NCBI GenBank assembly: GCA_963844715.1
Contig: CAWJPJ010000006.1
Span: 928,001-992,000, forward strand
Direction of reading: 5' to 3'
Source: an uncultured Phycisphaerales bacterium
GTDB lineage: Bacteria; Planctomycetota; Phycisphaerae; Tepidisphaerales; Tepidisphaeraceae
Length of the DNA stretch: 64,000 nt
Each line of letters begins with the position of its first letter. Position 1 is the stretch's first letter. Made by a program: the position numbers and the translations under genes. The notes under the pieces were generated by a model. That model worked only from the letters and a program-made list of their open reading frames with translations, did no database searches and was not told where the DNA came from. Below are positions 4,582 to 30,395 of the stretch, piece by piece.

Positions 4582-4690
4582 ATCCTAATCTTTCTCTTTC
4601 TCTTTCTCTTAATCCAAATCCTAATCCTAATCTTCATCTTAATCGTAATCTCGGAAACGGATTCGCGCACGGCGACTCGAATGAGATTAA

Positions 4691-5584
4691 GAGCCTCTAA
4701 CAAAAATGCGAATGAAGCCTGTTCCAACAGATCATTGCCTCACCCACGGTCATGAACGCGGCGTGGATGTCGGGCCGTTTTTCGTAACGGACTCGCAGTC
4801 GGCGATTCTGATGCAACCAACTCAGCGTACGCTCCACCGGCCAGCGGGTTTTGCCAAGACCACTTCCGTGCGGGCGGTTGCGTCGGGCCAGCAACGGGCG
4901 GCTGCCACGCTGACGCAACGCCTTTCGGTGCGGTTCGGAGTGATACGCCCGGTCTCCCTGCACCACCTCGAACCGCCAGCGCGGCCGGCCCGGTTTGCCC
5001 GAGACCTTTGGAATCGCATCGATCAGCGGCAGCAGTTGCGTGATGTCGTGGCGGTTGGCCGCCGTCAGGAGGGCAACCATCGGCGTGCCGTTGCCATCGG
5101 TCAATACATGGTGCTTGGAACCGTTTTTCCTGCGATCTACCGGGCTCGGACCCGTTTTTTTCCCCCGTGCACGGCCCGCACGGAAGCAGAATCCACCAAG
5201 GCCCGCGACCAGTCGATGGCATTCGACCGCCGCAATCGATTCAGCAATAGTCCGTGCAGCTTCGTCCAAACCCCACGATGGTTCCAATCGCGCAGTCGAC
5301 GCCAGCAACTCATGCCGCTGCCGCATCCCATCTCCTGGGGAAGGTATTCCCACGGAATGCCGGTTTTGAGCACGAACAGAATACCCGACAACGCCGCGCG
5401 ATCGTCCAGCGGCGGCCGGCCGCGCTTTCCTGGACCACTGCGGTGCTTGGGAAGCAGGGGTCGGATCAACTCCCAAAGCTCGTCGGTCACCAACGGCTTG
5501 GTCATAAAGCCCTCCATGGCTAAGACCAAGCCGTATTGTCCGATCAACCATAAACATGGGGAAGTGCATTTTTGTTAGAGGCTC
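4691..5584 (-). mobile_element. IS5-family (IS427-like group) insertion sequence
   Basis: Perfect 19-bp terminal inverted repeats GAGCCTCTAACAAAAATGC (4691-4709 and 5566-5584); TAA target duplication (4688-4690 and 5585-5587). Confidence 0.92.
4697..5505 (-). CDS. IS5 transposase, orfA/orfB joined by a probable programmed -1 frameshift
   Basis: orfA MTKPLVTDELWELIRPLLP...TGIPWEYLP; slippery GGGGGAAAAAAAC near 5154-5166; orfB GSKHHVLTDGNG...GDRAY...RWPVERTLSWL...RYEK; stop codon lies within the IR. Confidence 0.9.
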
Positions 5585-5653
5585 TAAGATTAAGATGAGG
5601 ATTAAGATTATGAAGAGGAGTAAGAGTAAGAGAAAGATTAGGAACTTGGGCGT

Positions 5654-13713: not shown

Positions 13714-13763
13714 CGGCTCCGATTATATAGGGAGATGATGAAAAAATGCTGAATGATGGGACA

Positions 13764-13818
13764 AGTTTCCAGTTGCCAGTTGCCAGCGAAGAGCGGGTAT
13801 TTACTGGCAACCGGCAAC
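13764..13818. repeat. Heptamer-repeat palindrome (REP-like) upstream of dnaE
   Basis: GTTGCCAGTTGCCAG (13772-13786) pairs with CTGGCAACCGGCAAC (13804-13818). Confidence 0.6.
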
Positions 13819-13881
13819 CATCCTTCATTTTCTACTGGCGGGGTCTTGTCGCGCGGGGGGACAAACCGCACAATCGAAACC

Positions 13882-16800
13882 ATGGCCTCGCCGGCGTTTG
13901 TTCATCTCCATTGTCACACCCATTACTCGCTGCTTGACGGCGCTTGCAAGATTCCCAATCTCGTGAAGCGAGCCAAGGAACTGGGGATGGACAGCCTGGC
14001 GATCACGGATCACGGATGCCTCTTCGGCGTAATCGAATTCTTTACCGAGTGCAAAAAGGAAGGCATCCGCCCGATTTTGGGGATGGAAGCCTATATGGCG
14101 CCCGGCGACCGGCGCGACCGGACTTCCGCCGGGCCGGGCGGCTCCGATGCGGCTTATCATCTCCTGCTCCTCTGCCAGAACATCGAGGGATACCGAAATC
14201 TGCTCAAGCTCTCGACCACGGCTTATCGCGACGGGTTTTACTACCGGCCGCGAATCGACAAGGAAGTTTTGCGCGAATTGAACGGCGGGTTGATCTGCAC
14301 GAGCGCGTGCCTCGGCGGGGAAATTCCGTCGGCACTTTTGCATCGCGACGCCAAATCGGCGCGGAAAATCGCCGAAACTTATCTCGATATTTTCGGGCCC
14401 GAGCGATTTTTCATCGAGGTGCAAAACCAGGGGATCGCCGAGCAGAATATCGTCAATCCGGAACTGGCGGAGATCGCCAAAAAACTGGGTGTCGGGCTGG
14501 TGGCGACCAATGACGTGCATTTCCTCAACCGCGACGATCACCACGCCCACGACGTTCTCTGCTGCATCAGCATGGGGAGGCTGGTCACTGACGAGGGGCG
14601 GCTGAAATACCCCGAGCACCTTTACCTGAAAAGCCCGCAGGAAATGCAGGAATCGCTCGGCGGATTCGACCAGGCCATCGAAAATACCGTCGCTATCGCG
14701 CGGCGCTGCGATGTGGCGCTGGAATTCGGGAAAAAACACGCGCCGGTTTACAAAGTTCCCAAGGAAGCGATTAAGTCGAAATCCGGCGGGGACATGCCGG
14801 ATGACGCCCGATATCTGCGCCAGCTTTGCGAAGAGGGATTGTCCTGGAGATACGGCAAAAGGGAAATCTCGCCGGAGATTCGCTCCCGGCTCGATTACGA
14901 ACTAGAGGTGATCACAAGCAAAAACTTCTGCTCCTATTTTTTGATCGTTTGGGATTTCTGCAATTTTGCGCGCAGCAGGGAATTCCGGTCGGCGCTCGCG
15001 GCAGCGGCGTCGGGACGATGGTGGGATATTTGCTTGGCTTGTGCAACGTCGATCCGCTTCGCTATGGATTGCTCTTCGAGCGATTCATGGACCCGAACCG
15101 AAACGAGATGCCGGATATCGATATCGATATCTGCCAGGAAGGACGAGGCAAAATCATCGAATATGTGCGGCAGAAATACGGACACGTCGCCCAGATCATC
15201 ACCTTCGGCACGCTTGCCGCGGCGCGGTTTGCAAGGATGTCGGCCGGGTATTGGGCGTGCCGCTGGCGATCACGGATAAGCTCACCAAGCAGATTCCCGC
15301 GGCCGTGGGGATGACGCTTCAGAAGGCGCTCGATCAATCGCCGGAATTGGCCGCGATGGTCGAGTCGGACCCGCAAGTCAAGAATATCGTCGAGATCGGG
15401 CAGCGCCTCGAAGGCCTATGCCGCAACGCGGGGATGCACGCGGCGGGCGTGGTGATCGCGGATCAGCCGCTGGAGAATTTCGTCCCGCTTTACAAGGCGG
15501 GCGACGACATTCTCACCCAATTCGAAGGGCCGATTGTCGAAAAAGTCGGCCTGCTCAAGATGGATTTCCTTGGGCTGCGCACGCTCACAGTTTTGCAGCG
15601 ATCGATCGAACTGGTGAAGAAGATCAAGGGGATCGACATCGACATCGAGGCGATCGATCAAAGCGACAAGAACGTTCTGGCCCTGTTTTGCCGAGGGGAA
15701 ACGAAAGGCGTGTTCCAATTTGAGTCCGGCGGAATGCAGGATTTGCTGATGAAGATGCAGCCGGATCGGCTGGAGGATTTGATCGCCGCCAACGCGCTCT
15801 ATCGCCCCGGACCGATGGAGCTCATCCCGCTTTATTGCAATCGCAAGCACGGGCGCGAAAAAGTCCCGCAAGTCCACCCGATCATGGACCGCATCCTTTC
15901 CGAGACCTACGGGATCATGGTCTACCAGGAACAGGTGATGCAAATCTTCAATCAGCTCGGCGGCATCGAACTCAGCGATGCTTACAAGCTGATCAAAGCC
16001 ATCAGCAAAAAGACCAGCGATGTGATCGCCAAGTATCGGCCGGACTTCATCAAGGGCGCCAAGGCGAAGGGGATCGCGCAGGAACAGGCCGAGGACATTT
16101 TCGAGCTGATCCTTAAATTCGGCGGGTATGGATTCAACAAAAGCCACTCGACGCGCTACGCCATCATCGCCTTCCAGACGGCGTTTATGAAGACCTATCA
16201 CCCGCTGGAATACATGGCCGCCCTGCTCACGTTCGAAATGGGCTCGACGGACAAGATGGTCGAGTACATCGAGGAATGCAAGAGGATGACCGTGGACGGG
16301 CATCGCGGGATTCGCGTTTTGCCGCCGGACGTCAATGATTCCGATCAGGATTTCACGCCGGTTTATATCGAAGCCGCCGGGAAGAAGCGCAAGGCCGCGA
16401 GCAAGACCGGAGTGATCCGATTCGGACTGGTCGCGGTTCGCGGCATCGGCGAAAAAGCCGCCGAGGCGATCATCGAACAGCGCCGTGCCAAGGGGCAGTT
16501 CCTCAGCATTTACGATTTCTGCGAGCGCGTGGATATGCGCCAGGTGACGCGATCGACCACCGAAGCGCTCATCAAATGCGGCGCATTTTCATCAACCGGA
16601 GCCAGGCGTTCGCAATTGCTGTCCGTGTTGGATCGTGCCGTCGAAATGGGTCAGCAGATGCAGCAGGATCAGCGGTCGGGGCAGTTGAATATCTTCGGCG
16701 AGGCGAGCCCCGCCGGTGCCACTGCCGGGCGGGGAGGATCGCTGCCCGATGTTCCGGAAATCCCCAGCGCGGAATTGCTGAAATTCGAAAAAGACTTGCT

Positions 16801-17536
16801 GGGATTTTACGTGACGAGCCACCCCCTGGCGGAACATCAGATGGCGCTTTCGAATTACGCGACGGCGACCACGCGCGAGGTTCAGAAAATGGCCGAGGGA
16901 TCGGAAGTCGTTGTCGGCGGCTTGATTTCGCGCGTGAAGCGCACGGTAACCAAACAGGGCCGGTCGGCGGGGAAGCCGATGGCGATCTTGACCCTGGAAG
17001 ATTTGGAAGGGCAAATCGACGCGACGCTCTTCGCCGAAACTTTGGCTCAGACCACGGAAAAATATCCGGACGCGGTCGCCGTCGAGCAGATCGTTTTTCT
17101 CAAAGGCAAGGTCGATCGGCGACGGGAGACGCCGGGAATTCTGGTCAACGAGCTTTTGCCAGTGGACGACGCGATTTCGCGGCTGACCAGCGACGTGAAG
17201 GTGCAGATCGACGTCGCGGATTCGGCGACGATCATCGCCGATTTGAAGCCGGTGCTGGCACGGCATCGGGGGCGGGTCAAGACGTTTTTGCAAGTCCCCG
17301 CCTCGGGGGTCAAGAAGGCACTGATCCGCCTCGATGAGCAATGGTATCTTCGCCCTACGCGGGCGATGGTGGACGAATTGCAGGCGGCGTTAGGCTCGCG
17401 CGGAAAAGTTGAACTTGCCGGCGAAGGAACGCGCCGGCTCAAACGATTGCAGCAGCAGCAACTTTTCCAAAACGCCGCGGTCGAATCGGAGCCGCCGAGC
17501 GATGTGCCGGCGGATGTTGTGGAACAGGAAGTGTAG
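13882..17536 (+). CDS. dnaE: DNA polymerase III alpha subunit (frameshifts near 14970 and 15225, probably sequencing errors)
   Basis: PHP domain FVHLHCHTHYSLLDG; GIPVGARGSG...MPDIDID in the middle frame; KMDFLGL, YGFNKSH and an OB domain in the last frame. Confidence 0.95.
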
Positions 17537-19679: not shown

Positions 19680-20144
19680 TGAGCACCGGGGAAAAACAAC
19701 GATCAATCTGGGAGGGAACGCCCGCTAGCCAGAGACGGGCGCCGCGGCGACGCTGTGGCTGTCGCCGCCGCGGACCCGTCCCACATCATATGGCAAAGCC
19801 AATGCCATGGAATTGGCGGCTCAAACCGCATTTATTAGGTCAGAAATGAGGTTTAGGTGCGCGGAGTTGCGCCGATTCATGCAGACTTGCCGGACTGGCA
19901 TTGCAAAATTGCAAGACCAACCAGTCACCGGCACCGGCATCCGATCCCGGGAGGAGGAGGGCTTTCGTGAGAAATGCGAGCAGAGAAGCGACCGCCAATG
20001 TGATCGCGAGTTTGTAATTCCTGGCTCAAATCATCCTCGCTCGTTTCTGGCCGCGCGGCGAATTTTATAGTCGGCGCGCCCAAAGTAACCAGAGTCACAG
20101 CGCGTCGATCCGAGGAGGTGAGCGAGACCGATCACACCAACCTA

Positions 20145-21032
20145 GGGCCTGTCTGATGAATCGCTTTTGGTTATAAATAGCGGTTTTCAGACGAGGTGTC
20201 ACGGATGCGACGTTATGAGCTCACGGATGAGCAGTACGAGTTGATCGGCGATCTGCTGCCCGGCAACGGCAAGCGCGGCGGGCAGTGGAACGACCACCGC
20301 ACCACGCTCAACGGCATGTTCTGGATTCTGCACTCGGGCGCTCAATGGCGCGAGATGCCCGAACGTTACGGCAGATGGCAAAGCGTCTACGACCGCTTCA
20401 ACCGCTGGAGAAAGGACGGAACGATTGATCGAATCCTCCAGCGGCTGCAGATGAGGTTGGACAAGCAAGGACGAATCGACTGGGACCTGTGGTGCATCGA
20501 CGGCACCAATGTGCGAGCCAGTCGATCCGCCGCCGGAGCCAGAAAATCAAAACCGCCCCGGAAGAACCGGCGGATCACGCGTTGGGCCGCAGCCGAGGCG
20601 GGTGGGGCAGCAAGCTCCACCTGGTTACTGACGGCCAGGGAGTTCCGCTCGCCGTCGAGGCCATGCGCCGGCCAATGCCACGAGAGCCGGTACGTGGAGC
20701 CGGTGATGAACGCGATGCGCATCGGTCGCCGCCGTCGTCGCCCCAGGAGGCTGGCGGGCGACAAGGGATACAGTTACGGAAATGTGCGGCGATGGCTGCG
20801 TCGCCACCGAATCCAAGCGGTGATCCCGGCGAAATCGAATCAGCCGCCGCAGGAGAACTTTGATCGCAAGGCGTATCGCCGACGGAACGTGGTGGAGCGT
20901 TGCGTGAATTGGATGAAGGAGAATCGCCGCCTGGGCACGCGTTACGAGAAACTGGCGGTGAACTTTCAGGCCATGGCCAAGCTCGCCATGATCCGTCGCT
21001 ATTTCAGGATTTTGGATTCATCAGACAGGCCC
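20145..21032 (+). mobile_element. IS5-family insertion sequence in a CTAG target
   Basis: Perfect IRs GGGCCTGTCTGATGAATC (20145-20162) and GATTCATCAGACAGGCCC (21015-21032); CTAG at both ends (20142-20145, 21032-21035); exact IR/TSD boundary is ambiguous. Confidence 0.92.
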
Positions 21033-21035
21033 TAG
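20205..21035 (+). CDS. IS5 transposase; central segment encoded in an alternative frame
   Basis: RRYELTDEQY, WREMPERYGRWQSVYDRF, IDGTNVRA; ALGRSRGGWGSKLHLVTDG in the other frame; GDKGY and YRRRNVVER. Confidence 0.88.
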   Translation: MRRYELTDEQYELIGDLLPGNGKRGGQWNDHRTTLNGMFWILHSGAQWREMPERYGRWQSVYDRFNRWRKDGTIDRILQRLQMRLDKQGRIDWDLWCIDGTNVRASRSAAGARKSKPPRKNRRITRWAAAEAGGAASSTWLLTAREFRSPSRPCAGQCHESRYVEPVMNAMRIGRRRRRPRRLAGDKGYSYGNVRRWLRRHRIQAVIPAKSNQPPQENFDRKAYRRRNVVERCVNWMKENRRLGTRYEKLAVNFQAMAKLAMIRRYFRILDSSDRP

Positions 21036-21100: not shown

Positions 21101-22462
21101 ATGCGCACTCAACCCATTCCCAAAAATAGCGAAGCGAAGTTCCATATCGACGAACTATTCTTTTCCACGACGGATCCCAAGGGCATCATCCTGGCGGGAA
21201 ACGATGTGTTCGTGCGGGTCAGCGGGTATTCGAGCGAGGAACTCGTCGGAAGCCCGCATAACATCATCCGGCACCCGGATATGCCGCGCGCGGCGTTTTG
21301 GCTCGTGTGGGATTATCTGCTCAAGGGCAAGAGCGTCGCGGCATACGTGAAGAACATGTCCGCCGATGGTTCTTACTATTGGGTGCTGGCGGCGATGGCG
21401 CCGATCAAAGGCGGATTCCTATCCATTCGCATGAAGCCCTCGACGCCGATGCTGGCAAAAATCGAGGGGCTCTATCAGCAGTTGCATGAAATCGAAAGCA
21501 AGGCCAAAGGCCCTGGCGATGCGCGAGCGGCCGCGCTGGAGGAGTCCAAGGCGGCGCTCATGGCCGCGCTCACGACCCTGGGATATGAATCGTACGATGT
21601 GCTCATGGGAGAAATGCTGCTTGCGGAAGTGAAGGCCCGGAAAGAGGCGATGGCGCAAATCCGGCATCTGACCGATTCCCACGCCGTCGCGTCCGACTCG
21701 GCGCGAGCCGAGGAGCTGAGGGGCCTTCAGGAACAGTGCGCCTTTCTGGGCAAGCAAGTCACCGATTTGTTCAAGAGCCTGGGATCGTTCATGACCCTGG
21801 AAAAGGAGCTGGGGGAAACGATTAAGTTCATTCAGCAATTGAGCCGGCGGCTGCGATTGCTGGCGCTGAATTCGCAGATCCAGGCGATGGGACTGGCCGT
21901 CGAGGGCCGCCCGCTGCAGGTGATCGCCGACCAGATGAGTTCCTGCACCGGCGGCGTCATCAATTCGGCGATGGACATCTGCAAGCACATGATGGACGTG
22001 AACAAGGTCCTGAAGAGCGCGGCCGCCCAGATCGCCACCAGCGACCTGAGCGTGGAAATGATGGCCAAATTCCTGGACGAAATGACGCGCTCCAAAGGGG
22101 ACCAAAACTCCAACATTCGCCGCGAGATCGCGCAATTGGCGGAGGTGGCGGCGAACAATCTCGATACAACGCTGACTCTGGTCCGCTCGTCGGCGGAAAA
22201 CGTCGATGTGCTGCGACGGCGCCTGGAAGTCCTCCTCCGCGAGATTCGGACCCTGGAAATCCTGCGCGTCTCCGCCAAGGCGGAGATCGCCCAGTGCAAG
22301 AATTCCGTCAGCGTCTCGACGATTTTTGAGAACCTTTACGCCCAGACACGCGAGGCGCGGAACAAGATCACGTTCCTGGTCGATCTGGTCGCGGCGGCGC
22401 GGATCGAAGTGCCGGATGCCGGCGCGATCAAAGCAAGCGTGTCGCAGCTTCTGGCGGCTTGA
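21101..22462 (+). CDS. Aer-like PAS sensor with short chemoreceptor-type coiled coil
   Basis: STTDPKGIILAGNDVFVRVSGY...PHNIIRHPDMP...VKN...YYWV (Aer PAS); LRLLALNSQI (MCP-tip-like). Confidence 0.8.
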   Translation: MRTQPIPKNSEAKFHIDELFFSTTDPKGIILAGNDVFVRVSGYSSEELVGSPHNIIRHPDMPRAAFWLVWDYLLKGKSVAAYVKNMSADGSYYWVLAAMAPIKGGFLSIRMKPSTPMLAKIEGLYQQLHEIESKAKGPGDARAAALEESKAALMAALTTLGYESYDVLMGEMLLAEVKARKEAMAQIRHLTDSHAVASDSARAEELRGLQEQCAFLGKQVTDLFKSLGSFMTLEKELGETIKFIQQLSRRLRLLALNSQIQAMGLAVEGRPLQVIADQMSSCTGGVINSAMDICKHMMDVNKVLKSAAAQIATSDLSVEMMAKFLDEMTRSKGDQNSNIRREIAQLAEVAANNLDTTLTLVRSSAENVDVLRRRLEVLLREIRTLEILRVSAKAEIAQCKNSVSVSTIFENLYAQTREARNKITFLVDLVAAARIEVPDAGAIKASVSQLLAA

Positions 22463-22735
22463 GCGGGGACCACAGATTCACAATCTTATTTCCCCAATAA
22501 TTCCCGCTTAAATTTCGCGGCGAGCCATTCGGCGTTTCCGCGATCATGGATCGCCCCGCAAATTTTTGTGCGGCCACAATCCGGTTACCGAACGTAGCTC
22601 CCACCGCGCCGGACAACGAGGAATCTTTTATCTTGATTGGAACTGGGTTCATTGCCCGGGCAATATTCTATCTGAAATTTATGGCTTGTCGCCTGTTGCG
22701 CCGACCGCTTAACATGGGAATTAAAGGAGGCCGGC

Positions 22736-23210
22736 ATGCAAAAGATCACCCCATTTCTGTGGTTTAACGGCCAAGCCGAAGAAGCGGCGAATTTTTATAC
22801 TTCGATTTTTAAGAATTCCAAGATTGTGAAAGTGGTGCGCGTACGGGGAGGCCGGGCCGGGGAGGAAGGGGGAGGTGATGCTGGTCGAGTTTGAGCTTGA
22901 GGGGCAGGACTTCAAAGCGCTTAACGGCGGGCCGCAATTAAATTTCACGCCCGCGATTTCATTGATGGTCGACTGTGTCGACCAGAAGGAGGTGGACGAT
23001 CTTTGGGAGAAACTCACCGCTGGCGGAAAGGAAATAGAGTGCGGGTGGTTGACGGATAAATACGGCCTGTCCTGGCAAATCGTACCGAGGGCCTTGATGC
23101 AAATGATCCAGGACAAAGACGAAAAAAAATCCCAGAGCGCCATGAAGGCGATGATGAAGATGGTAAAGATCGATGTGAAGAAAATAAAAGAGGCGTACGA
23201 CAACGCCTGA
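22736..23210 (+). CDS. VOC/PhnB-like (3-demethylubiquinone-9 3-methyltransferase family) protein; frameshift near 22841
   Basis: [37 protein letters not shown] and [16 protein letters not shown]. Confidence 0.88.
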
Positions 23211-23215
23211 CGAGC

Positions 23216-23728
23216 CTACGGCTCGATCCGCACCGGCTGATTGAATTTCTTGCCTAAAGCATTCAGATAATCGTCGATAGTTTTGGTGTGGCCGATGATG
23301 AATTGGCTGACGAAGCGGAAGATAGGGTTGGTCACGTCCCCCTCTTCCGTAATTCGGCACGTGCAGCCGGCGCTCGTCGGAGCGAGTTCCCACGTCCAGG
23401 TCCCGGAAAACGGTAGATTCTTGTCGGCGATTTGCGAGCGATAAAGCCGCGGCGGGTCCGAGGCGACTTCCTCAAACGTGATGGCTCGATGCCCGGATTG
23501 CTCGCGCCACATGCGATGGCCGTTTTGCGGCGCAAGCTCGGTGGACGCTACGCCGCGCCAATCCTGCGGACCCGTGATGGCGGCGAAGATAACCTCCGGC
23601 GGCTGACTGAAGCTCGCCATGCGCGTCGCCCGATGGGATTTAGGAAGCATCAGGCCGATCAGGGCGACGACCGCGATTAACGCGACCAGGCCGGCGCCGA
23701 CAAACAGGATCCATTTCATGGATTTCAT
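23216..23728 (-). CDS. SRPBCC/polyketide-cyclase-like protein with N-terminal TM
   Basis: LPKSH...FSGTWTWEL...ITEEGDVTNPIFRF. Confidence 0.75.
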   Translation of the reverse strand: MKSMKWILFVGAGLVALIAVVALIGLMLPKSHRATRMASFSQPPEVIFAAITGPQDWRGVASTELAPQNGHRMWREQSGHRAITFEEVASDPPRLYRSQIADKNLPFSGTWTWELAPTSAGCTCRITEEGDVTNPIFRFVSQFIIGHTKTIDDYLNALGKKFNQPVRIEP

Positions 23729-24198
23729 CCTTGTTTTCGAGCGTCGTGGGATTTTCCGGACGCCATCATTTCGCCCGCCGCCCGCGCGAGGATGCGCAGG
23801 CCGGTCATCGCAACCTCGCGGTCTTGCTCAGGCATGCGCCGCAGCATCAATTCCACCCGGCGAGGGTCCAGAACCTTTTGCCGTCGCTTGATGCGAAGCC
23901 CGGATCGAGTCAGGCGAAGATTGACCCGCCGCGCATCGAGCGAATCGCGGCTCCGACGCACGTAGCCATGGCGCTCCAGGCGATCGACCATCAGCGACAT
24001 GCTGGAAGGCGTGATCCCCATGTGCCCGGCCAGCTCGTGCAAATGCGTCGGCTCGATCGGATCGAGGTGATCCAACACGGAGGCCTGGTGCGAACTGATG
24101 AGCCGTTTGGAGGACTGGTCGCGCACATGGCGCACATGGCAGGCAAAGAAAATCCGTGGGTAGCAGTCGAGCACCGTCTGAACCGCCGCGCGAATCAT
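23725..24198 (-). CDS. MarR-family regulator
   Basis: ELAGHMGITPSSMSLMVDRLERHGYVRR..DARRVNLRLT. Confidence 0.88.
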   Translation of the reverse strand: MIRAAVQTVLDCYPRIFFACHVRHVRDQSSKRLISSHQASVLDHLDPIEPTHLHELAGHMGITPSSMSLMVDRLERHGYVRRSRDSLDARRVNLRLTRSGLRIKRRQKVLDPRRVELMLRRMPEQDREVAMTGLRILARAAGEMMASGKSHDARKQG

Positions 24199-24625
24199 GG
24201 GAAATAACCTATTTCAATTACTTTGATTTGTCAAATCAAATTAATATGGGCGTCGCATGGGAAGAGAATGGGGCATCTTTACACGGGTCCGGTCACAGGC
24301 GGTTCCGCCTGGGGGGGCCTGGCATCAGAAATGAACTTCGCAAGGCACCGAACGTTTTCAAAAACCAGCGTCTGGGGCGCGAAATGCAAAAATGCGATTT
24401 TTGGCTTGATTTTTTCATTTTTTGTGAAACAATTCATCCTCGTTCGACGTTATGTCGATGGAGAAACCTATGCGGCAGCGATATCAAATTAATATGTTCG
24501 GTACACCAGCCAAACGAGTCGGATCATCCGAACTCGATTGGGCGATACTATAACTCCCCCGCCGCGTCGGCCGGGAGTTCTTCCCGGCTGAAAGTAATCG
24601 TTACATTCAATTCCGGGAAGAATTT

Positions 24626-24698
24626 GGGCCTGTAGCTCAGCGGCCAGAGTGCTTGCTCGACACGCAAGAGGTCCGTGGTTCGATTCCACGCCGGCCCA
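24626..24698 (+). tRNA. tRNA-Val(GAC)
   Basis: Anticodon arm CTTGC-TC GAC AC-GCAAG; T-loop TTCGATT. Confidence 0.88.
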
Positions 24699-24721
24699 CT
24701 CTCGGTTCGCGCCGCATTCGG

Positions 24722-24959
24722 GCGCCTAGAGCGGCTTGCGGCTCCGCGTAGCGAGCCAGTTGGCCTCGGCTGCAACGGAGGCAAGGATGAACGACGAGGC
24801 GTATCAGAAAATCAGATACGTTGAGGAGCGAAGACGCGGCATCCGTTGCAGCCGTGGACAAATGGCCGCTAGGCGGAGCCGCAATCCGCTCTAAGCTCAA
24901 TCGGCGAGAGCGCCGCGCTTACATCGCGGAGGATGTTGGTTCGAGTCCAGCTTGGCGCA
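24722..24959 (+). tRNA. tRNA-Val(TAC) interrupted by a hairpin insert (24727-24893)
   Basis: 5' GCGCC at 24722 pairs with 3' GGCGC-A at 24954-24959; D arm, CCGCG-CT TAC AT-CGCGG and T arm follow the insert. Confidence 0.78.
24727..24893. mobile_element. MITE-like long hairpin inserted in tRNA-Val(TAC)
   Basis: Ends TAGAGCGG...CCGCTCTA; about 55-bp imperfect stem; TA at both ends. Confidence 0.7.
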
Positions 24960-25050
24960 TGGAGATGAAAAATGACGGGAATGCCCGGAAAATCAAGGTG
25001 TTTTCGCGTTGTTGACTGAACGGAAACGCCGCGAGAATCAAGGTTTTTTT

Positions 25051-25122
25051 GCGCTGTTAGCTCAGAGGCAGAGCACCCGGCCGATAACCGGGAGGCCGGA
25101 GAGTCGAGAACTCCACGGCGCA
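25051..25122 (+). tRNA. tRNA-Ile(GAT), atypical T arm
   Basis: CCCGG-CC GAT AA-CCGGG; acceptor GCGCTGT/ACGGCGC; T-loop GTCGAGA is non-canonical. Confidence 0.72.
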
Positions 25123-25187
25123 CTGAATTGGCGACGCGTCGTTAGCAGGCAAATGGATTCTCGCTGAACCCCGCGCGCTCTTCTCTT

Positions 25188-25228
25188 CCCCCCTCTCCCG
25201 GTACTCCGGGGGAGGGCTGGGGTGGGGG
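25188..25228. repeat. REP-like element
   Basis: CCCCTCTCCCGGTACTCCGGGGGAGGGCTGGGGTGGGGG, resembling the common CCCTCTCCC/GGGAGAGGG REP class. Confidence 0.65.
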
Positions 25229-25275
25229 CCGGCGCAATTCAGGCAAGATCCGCGGTAATCGGCAGTTCGCCTCGG

Positions 25276-25350
25276 GCACTGGTAGCTCAACTGGATCAGA
25301 GTTCCGGTCTACGAAACCGGAGGTTGAAGGTTCGACCCCTTCCCAGTGCG
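25276..25350 (+). tRNA. tRNA-Arg(ACG)
   Basis: CCGGT-CT ACG AA-ACCGG; acceptor GCACTGG/CCAGTGC. Confidence 0.9.
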
Positions 25351-25407
25351 TTATGAACGAAAAATGGTTGTATATATATCTATTGCAATACAACCAGAAG
25401 TGTCCGC

Positions 25408-25479
25408 GCACTCGTAGCTTAAGGGTTAAGCCGCCGGTTCTTACCCGGCCTGATGCAGGTTCGAATCCTGCCGGGTGCA
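25408..25479 (+). tRNA. tRNA-Lys(CTT)
   Basis: GCCGG-TT CTT AC-CCGGC; T-loop TTCGAAT. Confidence 0.85.
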
Positions 25480-25534
25480 TGAAAGGAGAATCGAAAAATG
25501 AGCCCGAGCAGAACCAAACGGTGCAGGTAAATCC

Positions 25535-25609
25535 GCACCGGTAGCTCAATGGAAACAGAGCAACCCTCTTCTAAAGGGTCGGCTGAGGGTTCGAGTCCCT
25601 CCCGGTGCA
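25535..25609 (+). tRNA. tRNA-Arg(TCT)
   Basis: ACCCT-CT TCT AA-AGGGT. Confidence 0.9.
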
Positions 25610-25623
25610 TGTAGATTCCGCGC

Positions 25624-25695
25624 GCACCGGTAGCTCAACGGCAGAGCCGCCGCCTTTTAAGCGGAGTGATGCGGGTTCGAGTCCTGCTCGGTGCA
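25624..25695 (+). tRNA. tRNA-Lys(TTT)
   Basis: CCGC-CT TTT AA-GCGG. Confidence 0.88.
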
Positions 25696-25707
25696 TGAAT
25701 ACACCAC

Positions 25708-25781
25708 GGTTCAGTAGCCCAATCGGCAGAGGCGCCTGACTCAGAATCAGGATAGTGCAGGTTCGAATCCTGCCTGAACTA
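25708..25781 (+). tRNA. tRNA-Leu(CAG), short variable loop
   Basis: CCTGA-CT CAG AA-TCAGG; 5-nt variable loop ATAGT; A73. Confidence 0.85.
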
Positions 25782-25792
25782 TTTCGGCGAAC

Positions 25793-25868
25793 GTTGCGGT
25801 AGCTCAATCGGATTCAGAGCGCGGCCCTCCGAAGGCCGAGGGTGAAGGTTCGATTCCTTCCCGCGACA
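25793..25868 (+). tRNA. tRNA-Arg(CCG)
   Basis: CGGCC-CT CCG AA-GGCCG. Confidence 0.9.
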
Positions 25869-25878
25869 TCGAAAATTC

Positions 25879-25950
25879 GGGCCCGTCGTCTAACGGAAAG
25901 ACTCCTGGCCTGCACCCAGGAAATGAGGGTTCAATTCCCTCCGGCGTCCA
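25879..25950 (+). tRNA. tRNA-Ala(TGC)
   Basis: CCTGG-CC TGC AC-CCAGG; G3-U70 retained; one extra base in the 3' acceptor strand. Confidence 0.82.
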
Positions 25951-26036
25951 TGCGAGCGGCTTCGTCCGCTCCAGAAAGAAGGTGATCGATCATGAGCGAA
26001 AACTCATCGGAAAGTTCATCTAGCGGCTCCACATCC

Positions 26037-26124
26037 GGAGGGTTGGCTGAACGGCTAAGGCACCCGTCTCGAAAACGGGCATTCCCGATGACTGGGATTG
26101 GGGGTTCGAATCCCTCACCCTCCG
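26037..26124 (+). tRNA. tRNA-Ser(CGA)
   Basis: CCCGT-CT CGA AA-ACGGG; long variable arm. Confidence 0.9.
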
Positions 26125-26149
26125 CTGAAGTAAACGAGAACGTGCGCAT

Positions 26150-26239
26150 GGAGGGTTGGCAGAGCGGACGATTGCGCCGCGGTGCTAACGCGGAAGGCGC
26201 CGACTAGGCGTCTCGAAGGTTCGAATCCTTCACCCTCCT
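26150..26239 (+). tRNA. tRNA-Ser(GCT)
   Basis: CCGCG-GT GCT AA-CGCGG; long variable arm. Confidence 0.88.
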
Positions 26240-26282
26240 TTGGAATGTGCGAGAGGGAACGGAGCTGGTCCGTTCCCGGAAT

Positions 26283-26294
26283 GTTCTTTGACAA
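26283..26294 (+). promoter_or_regulatory. boxA-like antitermination sequence inside the tRNA array
   Basis: GTTCTTTGACAA resembles rrn boxA (GCTCTTTAACAA); preceded by hairpin GGGAACGGA...TCCGTTCCC. Confidence 0.5.
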
Positions 26295-26310
26295 TCCGGT
26301 GGCGTAATTC

Positions 26311-26384
26311 GCCGTCATAGCTCAGTCGGGATGAGCGTCCGGTCGTCAACCGGAAGGTCATGGGTTCGATTCCCATTGGCGGCG
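26311..26384 (+). tRNA. tRNA-Asp(GTC)
   Basis: TCCGG-TC GTC AA-CCGGA; G73. Confidence 0.87.
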
Positions 26385-26412
26385 TTGGGCGCGAATTCCG
26401 CGCGCCTTCGAA

Positions 26413-26484
26413 GTGGATTTAGCTCAATCGGTAGAGCAGAGGTCTGAAAATCCTCCCGCCCTGGTTCAATTCCAGGAATCCACA
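26413..26484 (+). tRNA. tRNA-Phe(GAA)
   Basis: GAGGT-CT GAA AA-TCCTC; acceptor GTGGATT/AATCCAC. Confidence 0.87.
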
Positions 26485-26506
26485 TGTCGGCCAAAGGCCG
26501 CGAATC

Positions 26507-26578
26507 GCGTCGGTAGTTCAGCGGGTGGAACACCGCTATGCCAAGGCGGAGGCCCGGGTTCGATCCCCGGCCGGCGCA
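26507..26578 (+). tRNA. tRNA-Gly(GCC)
   Basis: CCGCT-AT GCC AA-GGCGG. Confidence 0.87.
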
Positions 26579-26583
26579 TTCTC

Positions 26584-26655
26584 GCAGTGGTAACTCAATC
26601 GGCAGAGTACCGGTCTTCCAAACCGGCAACGTGGGTTCGAATCCCGCTCACTGCA
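26584..26655 (+). tRNA. tRNA-Gly(TCC)
   Basis: CCGGT-CT TCC AA-ACCGG. Confidence 0.88.
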
Positions 26656-26691
26656 CTAAAGGGACTTTCGACGGTTGAGGATCTTTTTCAA

Positions 26692-26764
26692 GCCGTGGTA
26701 GCTCAACGGGTAGAGCAGTCGTCTCGTAAACGACAGATTGCCGGTTCGATCCCGGCCCGCGGCT
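26692..26764 (+). tRNA. tRNA-Thr(CGT)
   Basis: GTCGT-CT CGT AA-ACGAC. Confidence 0.9.
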
Positions 26765-26777
26765 TTTCAAAAAAATC

Positions 26778-26851
26778 GGGTGCGTAGCTCAGCGGCAAGA
26801 GCAGGGGCCTCATAAGCCTCAGGTCGTTGGTTCAAATCCAACCGTTACCCA
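26778..26851 (+). tRNA. tRNA with CAT anticodon (elongator Met or Ile2; not initiator-like)
   Basis: GGGGC-CT CAT AA-GCCTC; G1-C72 paired; one extra T in the 3' acceptor strand. Confidence 0.8.
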
Positions 26852-26852
26852 G

Positions 26853-27203
26853 TCAGGGATAGTTCAAACCGGTAGAACGCTCGGCTCTGAACCGGGATGT
26901 TGGAGGTTTCGGAGCAGCTTCATCTGTTTTGTAGCGTCTGCGTTGCGTCCAGATGGGCCGGGCGCTAGGCAGAGCGACGAGTTGGGTCAGGCACAGCGAC
27001 CCGGCGAGGAGCGATAACGACGCGAACGGCCCATCTGGACGCAACCCTCCGGGTCGCCGCCTTTTGCGGCCCATGCGTCGTTACTCCTCCTCGCCGTATC
27101 GTTTCACCTGATACGACTCGTCGTCGCGCCTAGCCTGTGCCGCAAAAGGCGGCGACGCAGACGCTACAAAACAGATGAAACTGCTCTGATCCTTCTCCCT
27201 GAA
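26853..27203 (+). tRNA. tRNA-Gln(CTG) interrupted in the T-loop by a 277-nt insert
   Basis: TCAGGGA...CTCGG-CT CTG AA-CCGGG...GGAGG TTTC [insert 26911-27187] GAT CCTTC TCCCTGA A. Confidence 0.82.
26911..27187. mobile_element. Branched MITE-like hairpin insert in tRNA-Gln(CTG)
   Basis: Ends GGAGCAG...CTGCTCT; perfect 25-bp outer stem (26919-26943 with 27155-27179); two internal stems of 19 and 18 bp. Confidence 0.72.
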
Positions 27204-27204
27204 T

Positions 27205-27277
27205 TGAGCCGTAGTTTAATCGGTAGCAATGCCGGTCTTTGAATCCGGAGATCGTGGTTCAAATCCACGCGGCTCAA
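27205..27277 (+). tRNA. tRNA-Gln(TTG)
   Basis: CCGGT-CT TTG AA-TCCGG; acceptor TGAGCCG/CGGCTCA. Confidence 0.85.
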
Positions 27278-27283
27278 CTTCTT

Positions 27284-27356
27284 ACCCATGTAGCTCAACC
27301 GGTAGAGCAGGCGGCTGTTAACCGCCGTGGTGGTGGTTCGAATCCATCCGTGGGTG
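27284..27356 (+). tRNA. tRNA-Asn(GTT)
   Basis: GGCGG-CT GTT AA-CCGCC; G73. Confidence 0.88.
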
Positions 27357-27448
27357 TGGGCGGCGCTTCGCGCCACCAGAGCGTAGAAAGTAGAGGCCGA
27401 GAATTTTCTACTTTCCACTTTCCACGAACCACTTTCTCGCGCAGCGCC

Positions 27449-27520
27449 GCTCCTGTCGTCCAACGGTCAGGATACCGGGCCTTCAACCGGAGAATGTGGG
27501 TTCAATTCCCACCGGGAGTG
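27449..27520 (+). tRNA. tRNA-Glu(TTC)
   Basis: CCGGG-CC TTC AA-CCGG (one C short, possibly a homopolymer error); acceptor GCTCCTG/CGGGAGT. Confidence 0.75.
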
Positions 27521-27536
27521 CATGGAGAAATGATTT

Positions 27537-27610
27537 CAGCGTGTGGCGTAGCTTGGTAACGCACGTGCCTCGGGCGCACGGGATCGAAGGTTCGAATCCT
27601 TCCACGCTGA
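27537..27610 (+). tRNA. tRNA-Pro(CGG)
   Basis: CGTGC-CT CGG GC-GCACG; C1-G72, A73. Confidence 0.9.
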
Positions 27611-27615
27611 CTTTC

Positions 27616-27701
27616 GCGTAGGTCGCATAATTGGCATTGCAGCGGGCCGTAACCCCGCCGACCCTTAGTGGTCCCTGGGGGTTCAAATCCCTCCCTACGC
27701 A
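27616..27701 (+). tRNA. tRNA-Tyr(GTA)
   Basis: GCGGG-CC GTA AC-CCCGC; long variable arm. Confidence 0.85.
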
Positions 27702-27827
27702 TTGCCGCAAAGCGGCAATAGAGCGGTGGCGCAGTCGAACAGCCAACGAATGACTCGAGGAAATCGTCCCCGTCAGACGATCCCACCGCGGTCTACTGCT
27801 CCCCTGCTCTACTGTTCAGAATTTTCC

Positions 27828-27900
27828 GCGCCGGAAGTTCCAACGGCGGAACGCCCGCCTCCAAATCGGGAAGCGGCAGGTTCGATCCCTGCTCGGCGCG
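27828..27900 (+). tRNA. tRNA-Trp(CCA)
   Basis: CCCGC-CT CCA AA-TCGGG; G73; A at position 8. Confidence 0.82.
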
Positions 27901-27911
27901 CTGGCAGTTTC

Positions 27912-27983
27912 GAGGATGTGGCCGATTGGACAGGCGCGGGTCTGCAAAGCCCGTCGATGCTGGTTCGAATCCAGTCATCCTCT
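27912..27983 (+). tRNA. tRNA-Cys(GCA)
   Basis: CGGGT-CT GCA AA-GCCCG; U73. Confidence 0.88.
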
Positions 27984-27989
27984 TTTGAT

Positions 27990-28064
27990 GGTGGCCGTAG
28001 CTCAAACGGTCAGAGCACCGGGCTGTGAACCCGGTCGGTGTGAGTTCGAGTCTCACCGGTCACC
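27990..28064 (+). tRNA. tRNA-His(GTG)
   Basis: G-1/C73; CCGGG-CT GTG AA-CCCGG. Confidence 0.9.
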
Positions 28065-28096
28065 CTGTATTGCTGTTGATGGCTGGAAATTTGAGA

Positions 28097-29064
28097 TCAA
28101 CTGCTCAGGTGACCATTTTGAAGCAGTTCGTCCAACACCCTTTCCAGCAACCTTATCTGTGCACGATCCACCGGCGCGGGTTGATCTTGATTGAACGGCT
28201 GGCTTTGTTCCGCCAGGAAACAAAAGCACTTCTCCGCGGTGTAGAAATCTAGGGCCTTCCGTTCAAGTTCGTTCAACCGCATGCCCGCGCACCAATAATC
28301 GATGTAGTCGGTCGGCAGCCCCTTAGCCATGAGCGCCATCCGCGTTAGTCCCAAGTGCGCGATGCGATCTCCGAAGCAGACCTCATCCACATCCACGATG
28401 CCGGAAAGTTCGCCGTGCTGGATCAGCACATTCTTGGTCGTGATGTCGTCCAGGAAAGACTGGGGGCGAGTCGCCTCAAAGTATTTTGAAAGCCGGCTCG
28501 CCGCATCCCGTAGAGGTTGGCGCGTTGCCCATCCACCACTCCGGCCTCTTCGATCCACCGTTCGCTGCGCTGAATAGACGCCTCCACGGCTTCGCCCCAA
28601 CTCTCATAAGGTGGCGCATGTCCCGGGTCGCTTTGGAATCCAAACCCCTTCCCTTCCGGCAGGCGTCCCAAGATCTCCTGCACCGCCGCCAGTCGGTAAG
28701 CCAGTTGCGCTTTCTCCTGCGCGGTCAATCGGGAATAAACCGCGCCCAAATCCTGCCCGGGTAAGCGCTCCAAAATCATGTATGGAAAGACCGTGCAATT
28801 CGGCGCGGCCTCCGCGTAAAGCAACTCGGGCAGCGGAATTCCCAGCGGTCGAAGAACGTTCGACCAGTGAATTCCGCCACGCAAATAGTGCCGATTCTCC
28901 GGCCGGGCAAGCCGCAACACCACCGCTCGCCCGTCGGCAAGAACCGCATCGTAAACATAGTGACATAAGCCGGTCGGAAATCGCTCAGCGGAAACCAACT
29001 CCGCTCCCAATGCCTCGTGCACGATAGCACGTAAGTCATCCGATGTTGGGCTTACCACCGCCAT
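28097..29064 (-). CDS. Aminoglycoside phosphotransferase-like (APH/kinase fold) protein; frameshift near 28520
   Basis: GLCHYVY...VVLRL, YMILERLPGQDL in the first frame; LDDITTKNVL...GIVDVD in the second frame. Confidence 0.75.
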
Positions 29065-29234
29065 GACGCCAACATTTGCCCTATTCGCCTTCGAAATCAA
29101 CCTACTTGTCGAGCAACTTATAAATAGCATCAAAATTCCGCCCGGCCACGCTATACCCCCCGCCGAGCGGATCGCATCCGCCTGATCCGATAATTATTCG
29201 CCTTTTCGCGTCGCGGCGGCCGATAAGTCGGCTG

Positions 29235-30395
29235 ATGAGCGACACTGCGTACCGAGATTCTCCGCCACCGGCCCAAGCCGATTCGCCCCGCGTTCTGGCA
29301 ATCCACCCGGTTCTGGAAGGGACCGCTTTCAATCCCCAGGCCGGGGGCAAGGACCTGGGCGCGGGGGAATGCACCGACGTTCTGCTCGAAATGGGCTGCC
29401 GCGTTAGCGTCTGGCCGCTTTCCTGGGGCGGACTGGCCGCCACGGAAAAGATCCTCTCGCGCCACCACGAAGTGATCTGGGGCAGCCACGGCCGCATCAA
29501 GCTCGTCCCAACCTGCGCCCCCGGCAGCCCGATGCGCGAGCCGAAGGACCTCGTCGACGATGTTCTGCGCGAACACCGCCCCCAGTTGCTGCACGTTCAT
29601 CAAACCCAAAACCCGCTCGTCGAACAGATCAAACAAAAGTCGCCCCAAACGCGAACCCTGCTCAGCAATCATTCCGGCGTCGTCAGCTCGCACATCGACA
29701 AATACGATCAGGTCGTCGTTCCCAGCCGATGGATGCGCGAACAGATCGTCGCTTCCCGGCCGGAGTTGGCCGATCGCGTGCGGACCATCCCCTATTTCCT
29801 GCAGCCCGAATATGAATGCGACCCGCCGCAGGAACCGGCGCGATCCGGAATCGTCTTCATCGGCCTGCTTACGGACCACCGCAAAGGCCTAGACACACTC
29901 CTCGATGCGTTGGCTCTGTTGAAAGCCGACGGGCAGACCTATCCCCTGACGGTCGTCGGCGAAGGGGCGGCCTTGGGCCAATTTCAGGAACAGTCACAGC
30001 GTTTGAATCTCGAGGTGACATTTCTCCGCAGGCTCGACCGCGAACAAAACGCCGGGCTCATGCGGCGATCGGCGCTCTTCTGCATGCCCAGCCGAGTGGA
30101 GAACTTCCCCATCGTCTTTATCGAATCCCTCTCCTGCGGCACGCCGCTCATAGGCCATGCCCCCGCGGTCAGCGAACTATCGCAAATCCTGCAATGCGAA
30201 ATCGGCGCCCCCTTCGACGGACAGCGCGCCGACGTCCCGGAACTGGCGGAACTGATCAGCCAATGGATGCTCATCCGATGTACGCAATTTGCCGAACTGA
30301 GGGACGTAGTGAAAAAACGGGTGCGAGCCTCGTTTTCCCACGAGGCCTATCGCGCCGCCTATCGGGCTGTTTACCAGCAGTTGTTGGCAGCCTAG
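29235..30395 (+). CDS. GT4 glycosyltransferase
   Basis: FIGLL..RKG, MPSRVENFPIVFIESLSCGTP (EX7E). Confidence 0.88.
   Translation: MSDTAYRDSPPPAQADSPRVLAIHPVLEGTAFNPQAGGKDLGAGECTDVLLEMGCRVSVWPLSWGGLAATEKILSRHHEVIWGSHGRIKLVPTCAPGSPMREPKDLVDDVLREHRPQLLHVHQTQNPLVEQIKQKSPQTRTLLSNHSGVVSSHIDKYDQVVVPSRWMREQIVASRPELADRVRTIPYFLQPEYECDPPQEPARSGIVFIGLLTDHRKGLDTLLDALALLKADGQTYPLTVVGEGAALGQFQEQSQRLNLEVTFLRRLDREQNAGLMRRSALFCMPSRVENFPIVFIESLSCGTPLIGHAPAVSELSQILQCEIGAPFDGQRADVPELAELISQWMLIRCTQFAELRDVVKKRVRASFSHEAYRAAYRAVYQQLLAA

Follow-up and report, generated by a model that had tools for sequence, protein, structure and literature searches.

We analyzed a stretch of 64,000 nucleotides from an uncultured Phycisphaerales bacterium (contig CAWJPJ010000006.1, positions 928,001 to 992,000), hereafter called the window, in which a tRNA-Val(TAC) gene belonging to a long array of tRNA genes is split in its 5' acceptor strand by a long hairpin. 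The reading that we prefer, with a probability of about 0.85, is that a MITE (miniature inverted-repeat transposable element) of the IS630 type, 163 nt long and here called element A, entered the tRNA-Val(UAC) gene of this supernumerary array at a TA dinucleotide and duplicated it. The insertion would have taken place in the 5' acceptor / position-8 region, and the element would have been mobilised in trans by a DDE transposase of the IS630 family, either that of a 1026-bp insertion sequence (IS) of the same genome or that of an extinct relative, which, by binding to the GAGC...TAGCG ends, would move the element by cut and paste into YTAR sites. The interrupted gene would be dead, because the formation of a normal L-shaped tRNA should be prevented by the 163-nt helix that separates nucleotides 7 and 8, by the lack of a linker base and by 13 extra nt upstream, and the insertion would persist as a consequence of the redundancy of the array copy. 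Almost certainly, the Val(tac) copy of the array is a dispensable pseudogene with at least two further small lesions, since a housekeeping Val(TAC) gene exists elsewhere in the genome (8 contigs, 4.55 Mb, 85% complete). The initial annotation had asked whether there was such a second gene; it was found at C7:73501-73574, and its sequence is quite unlike that of the array gene.

The interrupted tRNA-Val gene and its orthologues

The locus reads ...GGGCGCC-TA-GAGCGG...CCGCTC-TA-A-GCTCAATCGG..., and the body of the element together with both TA copies (TAGAGCGG..CCGCTCTA) occupies positions 24727-24893, i.e. 167 nt, in agreement with the length originally proposed for the hairpin. The parts of the locus are as follows:

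24709-24721, + strand: extra 13 nt (GCGCC-GCATTCGG), without counterpart in the orthologues; its GCGCC aligns positionally with the orthologous tRNA start
24722-24728, + strand: 5' acceptor fragment GCGCC (24722-24726) and left TA (24727-24728); the fragment pairs with GGCGC 24954-24958 in the fold and is used by ARAGORN after excision
24729-24891, no strand assigned: body of the MITE 'A', 163 nt, a GAGCGG...CCGCTC near-palindrome, delimited by the aligned ends of 7 genomic copies, 6 of them with TA on both sides
24765-24858, + strand: core module within A (P1 stem, conserved unpaired strands, P2 hairpin), 89.3 bits with the covariance model R1
24892-24893, + strand: right copy of the TA target site, from the flank alignment of the element copies
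24894-24959, + strand: 3' 66 nt of tRNA-Val(TAC), Rfam tRNA 48.4 bits, 93% identical to the orthologues of genomes G139 and G056

The last of these segments holds one linker A, the D arm, the anticodon arm (TAC), the variable loop, the T arm, the 3' acceptor strand and the discriminator A. The three arms are recognized both by Rfam and, after excision of the insert, by ARAGORN. On the window as it stands, ARAGORN called no gene at 24722-24959, and the Rfam tRNA model gave a truncated match at 24888-24959 (48.4 bits, gathering threshold 29), as had been anticipated when it was suggested that scanners would miss or truncate this gene. When the body and one TA were excised in silico, ARAGORN with default settings called a 73-nt tRNA-Val(tac). 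A functional gene would form an unbroken cloverleaf whose acceptor stem has 7 bp and whose linker at positions 8-9 has two bases; this one presents the 163-nt insert and, once it is excised, a 1-nt linker and a T.T at 6-67.

The RNA fold predicted for the 238-nt stretch reaches -136.5 kcal/mol, compared with -94.3 +/- 4.7 for shuffled sequences (z -8.9; none of the 200 shuffles was as good). In this fold GCGCC pairs with the GGCGC of the 3' end, the helix of the insert stacks on that pairing, and the D, anticodon and T arms are normal. The stem had been described as having ~55 bp and regularly spaced mismatches, a description that the fold does not support: the arm of the insert comprises ~49 pairs, with single mismatches at irregular intervals (after runs of 13, of which 5 are the acceptor pairs, 12, 5, 4, 3, 2 and 13 pairs), and ends in a poorly paired apex capped by a small hairpin.

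The 3' 70 nt of the Val gene were searched in 141 genomes of the family (E <= 1e-5), with matches in 26 genomes, the own one among them. In the same array slot, the nearest orthologues were those of G139 and G056 (93%) and G140 (90%), over 68-69 nt of the 3' part. All seven syntenic Val genes examined are uninterrupted; five of them start with GCGCC and two with ACGCC, followed by two bases and TAGCTC, so that the condition under which the initial annotation would have given up the split, a different 5' acceptor strand in the orthologues, is not borne out. The seven carry TA at positions 8-9, and the starts of the window's orthologues are GCGCCTG-TA-GCTC or GCGCCCA-TA-GCTC. Immediately upstream, the orthologues read ..tctcggttc-GCGCCTGTAGCTC where the window reads ..tctcggttc-GCGCC-GCATTCGG-GCGCC-TA.., with a second GCGCC (24709-24713) placed 8 nt upstream of that at 24722-24726. 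The anticodon of the Val slot varies among arrays (tac, aac, cac) and, judging from these genes, appears to drift: it is AAC in G139 (L010 1492-1567) and CAC in G128, G129 and G153. Furthermore, the array of G005 has no gene in this slot, nor a second Val gene at all. The exact 24-nt pattern of the Val anticodon arm was also found in metagenome-assembled genomes labelled Gammaproteobacteria, Chloroflexi and Planctomycetales (L029, L034, L035); these matches appear to be ordinary Val(TAC) genes that share the anticodon arm, since their acceptor stems are unrelated.

Element A and its probable source of transposase

Element A is small (163 nt), lacks a transposase ORF and has terminal inverted repeats. 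Its BLAST search against the whole genome gave seven copies on 4 contigs, the other six being 84-95% identical to the copy in the Val gene. They begin with GAGCGG and end with CCGCTC (one is degraded), and TA is present on both sides in six of the seven, the remaining one having a degraded right end. Outside the copies, the left-hand base is Y and the right-hand one R (YTA..TAR); the flanks are otherwise unrelated, except for the copies at C7:1129770 and C1:137341, which share the right flank and the downstream ORF and may represent one duplication. A 3-bp (TNA) duplication, with mobilisation of the IS1031 type, was also considered and rejected: it fits none of the seven copies, whose flanks (CTA/TAA, TTA/TAG, etc.) never repeat as 3 bp.

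The layout of the ends of A, TA-GAGC..N16..TAGCG, is the same as that of the 1026-bp IS, both ends of which were found by a search for TA-GAGC, 14-17 nt and T(A/G)GCG. This IS is present in 13 complete copies without a single difference among them, all flanked by TA and with YTAR as target, and in a 14th copy at a contig edge. The duplication of TA proposed in the initial annotation is thus sustained by both the copies of A and those of the related IS. The absence of differences among the 13 copies points to a very recent burst. Two overlapping ORFs of the IS match DDE_3 (2.6e-33) and helix-turn-helix domains including HTH_Tnp_Tc3_2, and the 14 DDE_3 matches of the genome all belong to it. These domains identify a transposase of the IS630/Tc1-mariner type, which is probably produced by frameshifting: in the 13 copies, one of which lies at C6:302491-303516, an A-run marks the break between its two frames. 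Over the first 25 nt, identity to the ends of the IS amounts to 12-14 positions for A, 13-15 for B1 (an element in a tRNA-Gln gene of the same array, see below) and 18-20 for the subfamily B2; random 25-mers give a mean of 6.0, and 0.74% of them reach 12. The matches of A include positions 1-4 (GAGC) and 21-25 (TAGCG), in register. Taken together, element A is most probably an IS630-type MITE.

The window contains two other ISs, both of the IS5 superfamily: one at 4690-5585, with DDE_Tnp_1, GAGCCTCTAAC ends and a 3-bp TAA duplication, and an IS427-like one at 20143-21034, with CTAG target and ends GGGCCTGTCTGATGAATC. As partners of A both were rejected, because their ends are unrelated; the resemblance that had been seen to the IS5 end at 4691 was therefore misplaced, the relevant relative being the 1026-bp IS of the IS630 family. 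Ends resembling those of both ISs recur in other genomes around the core module treated in the next section. An exact 24-mer of the arm of A had 0 matches in a search of a contig database, no Rfam family besides tRNA matches the region 22000-30000 (E <= 1), and neither element A nor a MITE inside a bacterial tRNA gene was reported in the open-access literature searched.

Several points weigh against an IS630-type insertion into an otherwise ordinary Val gene. On the one hand, the ends of A are only 12-14/25 identical to those of the resident IS, and no full-length IS with A-type ends is present in the assembly, which is 85% complete. On the other hand, the excised gene would read GCGCC-TA-A-GCTC where the orthologues have TG-TA or CA-TA; it would be one base short, with just one A separating the acceptor stem from the D stem, no U8 in the linker and the T.T at 6-67, so that one has to suppose either one or more further lesions or an ancestor that was itself non-standard. 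In addition, the remaining 66 nt show the same degree of conservation as intact neighbours (61/67 = 91% to G139; neighbours 71-96%), and this lack of any sign of decay fits a recent insertion and equally a retained function. The loss of function of the Val gene is inferred from the DNA sequence. The cheapest history for the missing base, tentatively suggested by the alignment, would be an ancestor GCGCC-TA-TA-GCTC hit at its first TA (positions 6-7) with a later loss of T8, i.e. one indel. Insertion at U8-A9 of a GCGCCTG-TA-GCTC ancestor was rejected because it needs two extra indels.

An alternative is that the insertion is tolerated at the RNA level, the helix being removed or cut (e.g. by RNase III) and the parts paired or re-ligated into a working tRNA-Val. 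This idea, for which we see very little room, finds some ground in the predicted fold, where the hairpin is surrounded by the arms of the tRNA and an acceptor helix of 5 bp, in the conservation of the 3' part with its three arms, and in the RtcB ligase that a study on a long array of Anabaena (PMC8421152) reports as co-regulated with that array. However, the helix is continuous across both junctions and forms no bulge-helix-bulge, and no splicing endonuclease domain (PF01974) was found in the genome, 85% complete, in a search where 4 archaeal controls were positive. Even after excision, the linker would remain a base short and without U8, and the acceptor would keep its T.T. Moreover, the other copies of A are not in RNA genes, and thus no dedicated excision system is implied.

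It could also be thought that a repeat was collapsed or mis-joined into the tRNA gene during assembly. The element is a repeat, a short-read contig of run X4 passes, at 24893, into sequence that flanks another copy, and the dnaE gene of the window, which is split into two overlapping ORFs, could reflect indel errors. Nevertheless, both junctions lie within an X1 contig (24699-25000) that has neither differences nor gaps, an X2 contig is identical over 24842-25228, which includes the right junction and 335 nt beyond it, and the X4 contig matches 24666-24893 with 1 difference and covers the left junction without gaps; we consider an artefact practically discarded. The runs X1, X2 and X4 belong to one study that may include the source sample, and they represent a re-assembly of reads and not an independent organism. 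The sequence of the locus is real and, as the contigs reproduce the junctions without gaps, the missing base is no assembly error. Therefore, of the two statements made initially, that the excised gene is one base short is confirmed by the ARAGORN call, and that this may be an indel error is not sustained. No short-read contig joins across the element as an empty site, the coverage being so thin that this is uninformative on polymorphism.

A core module shared by different elements

A second tRNA gene of the array, tRNA-Gln(CTG), is split in the T loop by another hairpin, which has ~6 copies in the genome. It is flanked at this site by CG and TG and not by TA:

26853-26911, + strand: 5' part of tRNA-Gln(CTG), to the T loop; weak Rfam tRNA match at 26853-26914, aligns with the intact Gln(ctg) of 6 other arrays
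26912-27186, no strand assigned: MITE 'B', 275 nt, ends GAGCAG...CTGCTC, with two core modules (26948-27041, + strand, and 27057-27150, - strand)
27187-27202, + strand: 3' remainder of tRNA-Gln(CTG), from the alignment with intact Gln genes

The inserts of the Val and Gln genes had been taken for one element family. By sequence this does not hold, the only match between them being one of 38 nt at 76%, which is part of a ~94-nt core module; the layout TA-GAGC..TAGCG and the core are, on the other hand, common to both, and on these features the two appear to be different subfamilies of one superfamily. The core consists of a 13-bp stem (P1), a 5' strand C.AGG..CGaCGA, a 6-bp hairpin (P2) and a 3' strand GAGgAG..ACG, and the positions conserved in at least 90% are nearly all unpaired. 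In 18 hand-picked modules 94.1% of the cells were paired and changes on both sides were seen in 15 of the 19 pairs; in 61 distinct modules fitted to the model the values were 93.4% and 19/19. Slid controls gave 30-44% in both cases. It should be noted that the arms of palindromic mobile DNA can co-vary for reasons other than a folded transcript.

In the own genome, the covariance model found 21 modules in 14 elements: 7 in the A copies, 12 in six B copies, each of which carries two modules in opposite orientation, and 2 at C7:72214. Iterated nhmmer searches seeded with the core of A retrieved no more than the 7 A copies, and the covariance model was needed to reach the relatives. The core was present in 38 of 141 genomes and 22 of 76 genera of the family (including the unpublished G004), as well as in 30 of 151 genomes and 8 of 21 families sampled across the class. 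No description of it was found in the open-access literature searched, nor in the Rfam scan.

Among the loci that were read, the core is framed by the inverted repeats of at least two unrelated transposase families, the IS630-type TA-GAGC..TAGCG and the IS5-type GGCCTGTCTGATGAATC or GAGCCTCTAACAAAA. IS630-type ends (TA-GAGC...) surround it in the A and B elements of the own genome and in loci from G001, G002, G019, G028, G032, G126, G134, G136, G139, G140, G143 and G144. Ends of the IS5 type (GGCCTGCCTGATGA.., GGCTCTGTCTCATGAATC or AGAGCCTCTAACAAAA), which resemble those of the two IS5-type ISs of the window, were seen at C7:72214 and in loci from G140, G144, G210 and G032. Several end types can be found within one genome: the six loci read in G210 show four different end sequences around near-identical bodies. 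In the orthologous array of G140 (L012 2222-2400), a ~162-nt core-bearing hairpin with IS5-type ends (GGCTCTGTCTCATGAATC) interrupts tRNA-Arg(CCG) within its D loop; a clean target duplication cannot be seen at this insert. No autonomous element carrying the core was found; in G144, two pairs of core matches 1.1 kb apart were examined as a candidate and rejected, being separate MITEs that flank ordinary ORFs.

What the core is for can be considered from two sides. One explanation is that the host recruited it as a processing, termination or regulatory signal in the array transcript, the loss of the tRNA being a side effect. The conserved unpaired motifs, the stems that covary across families (93-94% paired versus 30-44%) and the presence of the core across the class could be expected of such a signal. 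Against it, both orientations of the core with respect to the transcription of the array are represented in the Val and Gln inserts, no T-run follows the hairpin, and the orthologous arrays have no insert at the Val and Gln places; furthermore, a scan of the array for promoters and terminators returned 0 promoter-like sites and, where the element lies, nothing terminator-like. This makes a recruited signal quite improbable. A second idea, which we put forward only tentatively and hold to be doubtful, is that the core is a structured nucleic-acid module (RNA or single-stranded DNA) that acts as a portable chassis for non-autonomous transposition and is itself under selection, dispensable tRNA arrays being recurrent sinks; for example, it might bring any pair of ends together, or bind a host or transposase factor. 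It is based on the two covarying stems, the invariant unpaired motifs, the copies, often dozens of them, the distribution over at least 8 families of the class, and the variety of ends around the core, which belong to at least two unrelated transposase families and differ even inside a single genome.

The array as a landing site and its relation to known systems

The array that harbours both interrupted genes, and the gene that follows Val in it, are as follows:

24626-28065, + strand: accessory long tRNA array, with 24 ARAGORN genes, the tRNA-Ile(GAT) found by Rfam only and the two interrupted genes (~27 in total)
25051-25122, + strand: tRNA-Ile(GAT), Rfam 48.5 bits, missed by ARAGORN, 69/72 positions identical to G139

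ARAGORN predicts 25 tRNA genes over the window, 24 of which are in the array; with the Ile gene added by Rfam, at least 20 co-oriented genes at two or more per kb are found in these 3,440 bp, all on the + strand. Genome-wide it predicts 74, i.e. the 24 of the array and 50 elsewhere, which make up a full scattered set including Val(tac). The order of the array is kept across genera: Val, Ile(gat), Arg(acg), Lys(ctt), Arg(tct), Lys(ttt), Leu(cag), Arg(ccg), Ala(tgc) ... Cys, His. Searches of 2/2 genomes of the same genus (90% and 95% complete) did not recover the array, which is present in other genera; given this patchy distribution, it agrees with what has been published on long, horizontally spread, supernumerary tRNA arrays. 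Compared with the compact array of G139, it has lost Leu(gag) and Leu(caa), its Val(tac) and Gln(ctg) are interrupted and its Glu(ttc) is oddly called. The Leu(gag)-Leu(caa) pair, which 6 syntenic arrays have between Ala(tgc) and Ser(cga), is gone at 25949-26037, where an 87-nt gap remains, and at 27449-27521 ARAGORN gives a two-base anticodon to a gene that aligns with the Glu(ttc) of other arrays (66/74 positions to G139).

The presence of two inserts in one array raises the question, posed from the beginning, of whether tRNA-like structure is targeted or selection on the array is relaxed. If the elements actively targeted tRNA genes or the array, either by tRNA-like structure or by array sequence, one would understand that 2 of the 14 core-bearing elements lie inside tRNA gene bodies of an array that makes up 0.076% of the genome (Poisson P(>=2) = 5.6e-5 under uniform insertion, and 0.002-0.005 on the assumption that insertions are tolerated in only 10-15% of the genome, values that are post hoc, as the case was chosen because it had been noticed), that a tRNA-Arg(CCG) was independently split in the G140 array, and that one further element is 1 kb from the housekeeping Val(tac) gene. 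However, the other 12 elements are at 1 to ~63 kb from any tRNA gene, most of them between long ORFs, and the three hits in tRNA genes are at three different places (acceptor/8, T loop, D loop) with differing end types. YTAR sites are, moreover, 2.2 times denser in the array (6.1 versus 2.7 per kb genome-wide), and the spacers of arrays from other genera hold unrelated hairpins and small ORFs, as expected of a tolerant locus. Targeting is therefore unlikely, and of the two possibilities first raised it is the permissive, tolerant array that fits better: being permissive and dispensable, the array would be over-hit as a sink, not as a target. The enrichment in tRNA genes that had been proposed as a check is seen for the array and does not extend to the rest of the elements, which are not near tRNA genes. 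A census of long hairpins by k-mers gave 61 candidates of many families and only 2 of the 7 A copies, and was left out of the enrichment estimate as too insensitive.

Long tRNA arrays ('L-arrays') are described as patchy, with Planctomycetes among the phyla that have them and with frequent insertions, duplications and deletions (PMC8421152), and 'tRNA array units' have been defined as well (PMC4758250). A further trait ascribed to such arrays is silence except under stress on translation. The array studied here resembles both in having >20 tRNA genes, >2 per kb, in one orientation, with added isodecoders, a complete scattered set and a patchy distribution. It differs from the L-arrays in that this type of array is syntenic across many genera of one planctomycete family and has its own conserved upstream inverted repeat.

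As for the insert, a group I intron does not fit, since no Rfam family besides tRNA was found and the insertion is at the acceptor/position 8 and not in the anticodon loop. In Archaea, non-canonical tRNA introns and split tRNAs are known, and, as in them, the insert of the Val gene is outside the anticodon loop and the exon halves can still pair. Unlike the archaeal introns, there is here no bulge-helix-bulge and no splicing endonuclease, the host is a bacterium and the insert is a dispersed TA-flanked repeat, so that the likeness is in appearance only. Short non-coding hairpins are well represented by the IS630-family MITEs, such as MITEEc1, and by the Correia/NEMIS elements of Neisseria. Like IS630-family MITEs, element A is short and non-coding, with terminal inverted repeats and a long-hairpin fold; it has the TA duplication, a YTAR-like target, dispersed copies and a DDE_3 IS in the same genome. 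It differs in that its arms are almost fully self-complementary, and its apex is the ~94-nt module with conserved unpaired strands, which is also found inside IS5-type inverted repeats. A preprint (10.1101/2024.01.18.576219) names MITEEc1_IS630 and reports ~90% of prokaryotic MITEs as intergenic, unlike this copy of A, which is inside a tRNA gene. In Candidatus Thiomargarita nelsonii, hairpin MITEs with TA-rich ends interrupt functional genes, and one of them sits inside a group I intron (PMC4853749). In contrast to element A, the interrupted tRNA genes of that bacterium carry putative group I introns and no MITEs, and that work describes no shared core.

The tRNA arrays of these planctomycetes hold genes that scanners drop because mobile hairpins split them, and gene counts and anticodon inventories of such arrays will be wrong unless the halves are joined by means of syntenic arrays. 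The case also provides a natural read-out of the dispensability of individual array tRNAs. The unexpected part is the covarying core, spread over the class, with interchangeable ends: it points to an undescribed, class-wide superfamily of MITEs in which the core travels with the ends of different transposase families. Such a combination is unusual, and it could reveal which features, apart from inverted repeats, underlie the success of a MITE.

Other observations concern the surroundings of the array genes. Just 5' of the first one, the region 24556-24625 (CTCCC..GGCCGGGAGTTCTTCCCGG..N26..CCGGGAAGAA) is conserved, contains an inverted repeat and is common to arrays at at least 9 other loci of several genera; it may function as promoter or operator for the array. 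Positions 25182-25235, which separate Ile from Arg(acg), hold a short G/C-rich hairpin repeat (CCCCTCTCCC..GGGGAGGG), with similar hairpins elsewhere in the genome. Short-read contigs pile up on it (summed depth 308 in X2) with many differing loose ends, which marks it as a repeat of very high abundance in these soil metagenomes. The 93 nt between Tyr and Trp (27719-27811) start with TAGAGCGG and end with CTGCTCTA, have no second copy in the genome, and are possibly a decayed pair of element ends, or chance. In arrays of other genera (L046/L047, i.e. G129/G128, and L049), conserved inserts of 240-300 nt begin with an ATG after a Shine-Dalgarno-like GGAGG and are possible small protein genes between tRNA genes.

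Outside the array, the dnaE gene (DNA polymerase III alpha) at 13753-17536 appears as two overlapping ORFs in different frames, the first (13753-15279) with the PHP domain and the start of the alpha domain and the second (14966-17536) with the rest; either a frameshift, an indel introduced during assembly or a genuine interruption of an essential gene accounts for the split.

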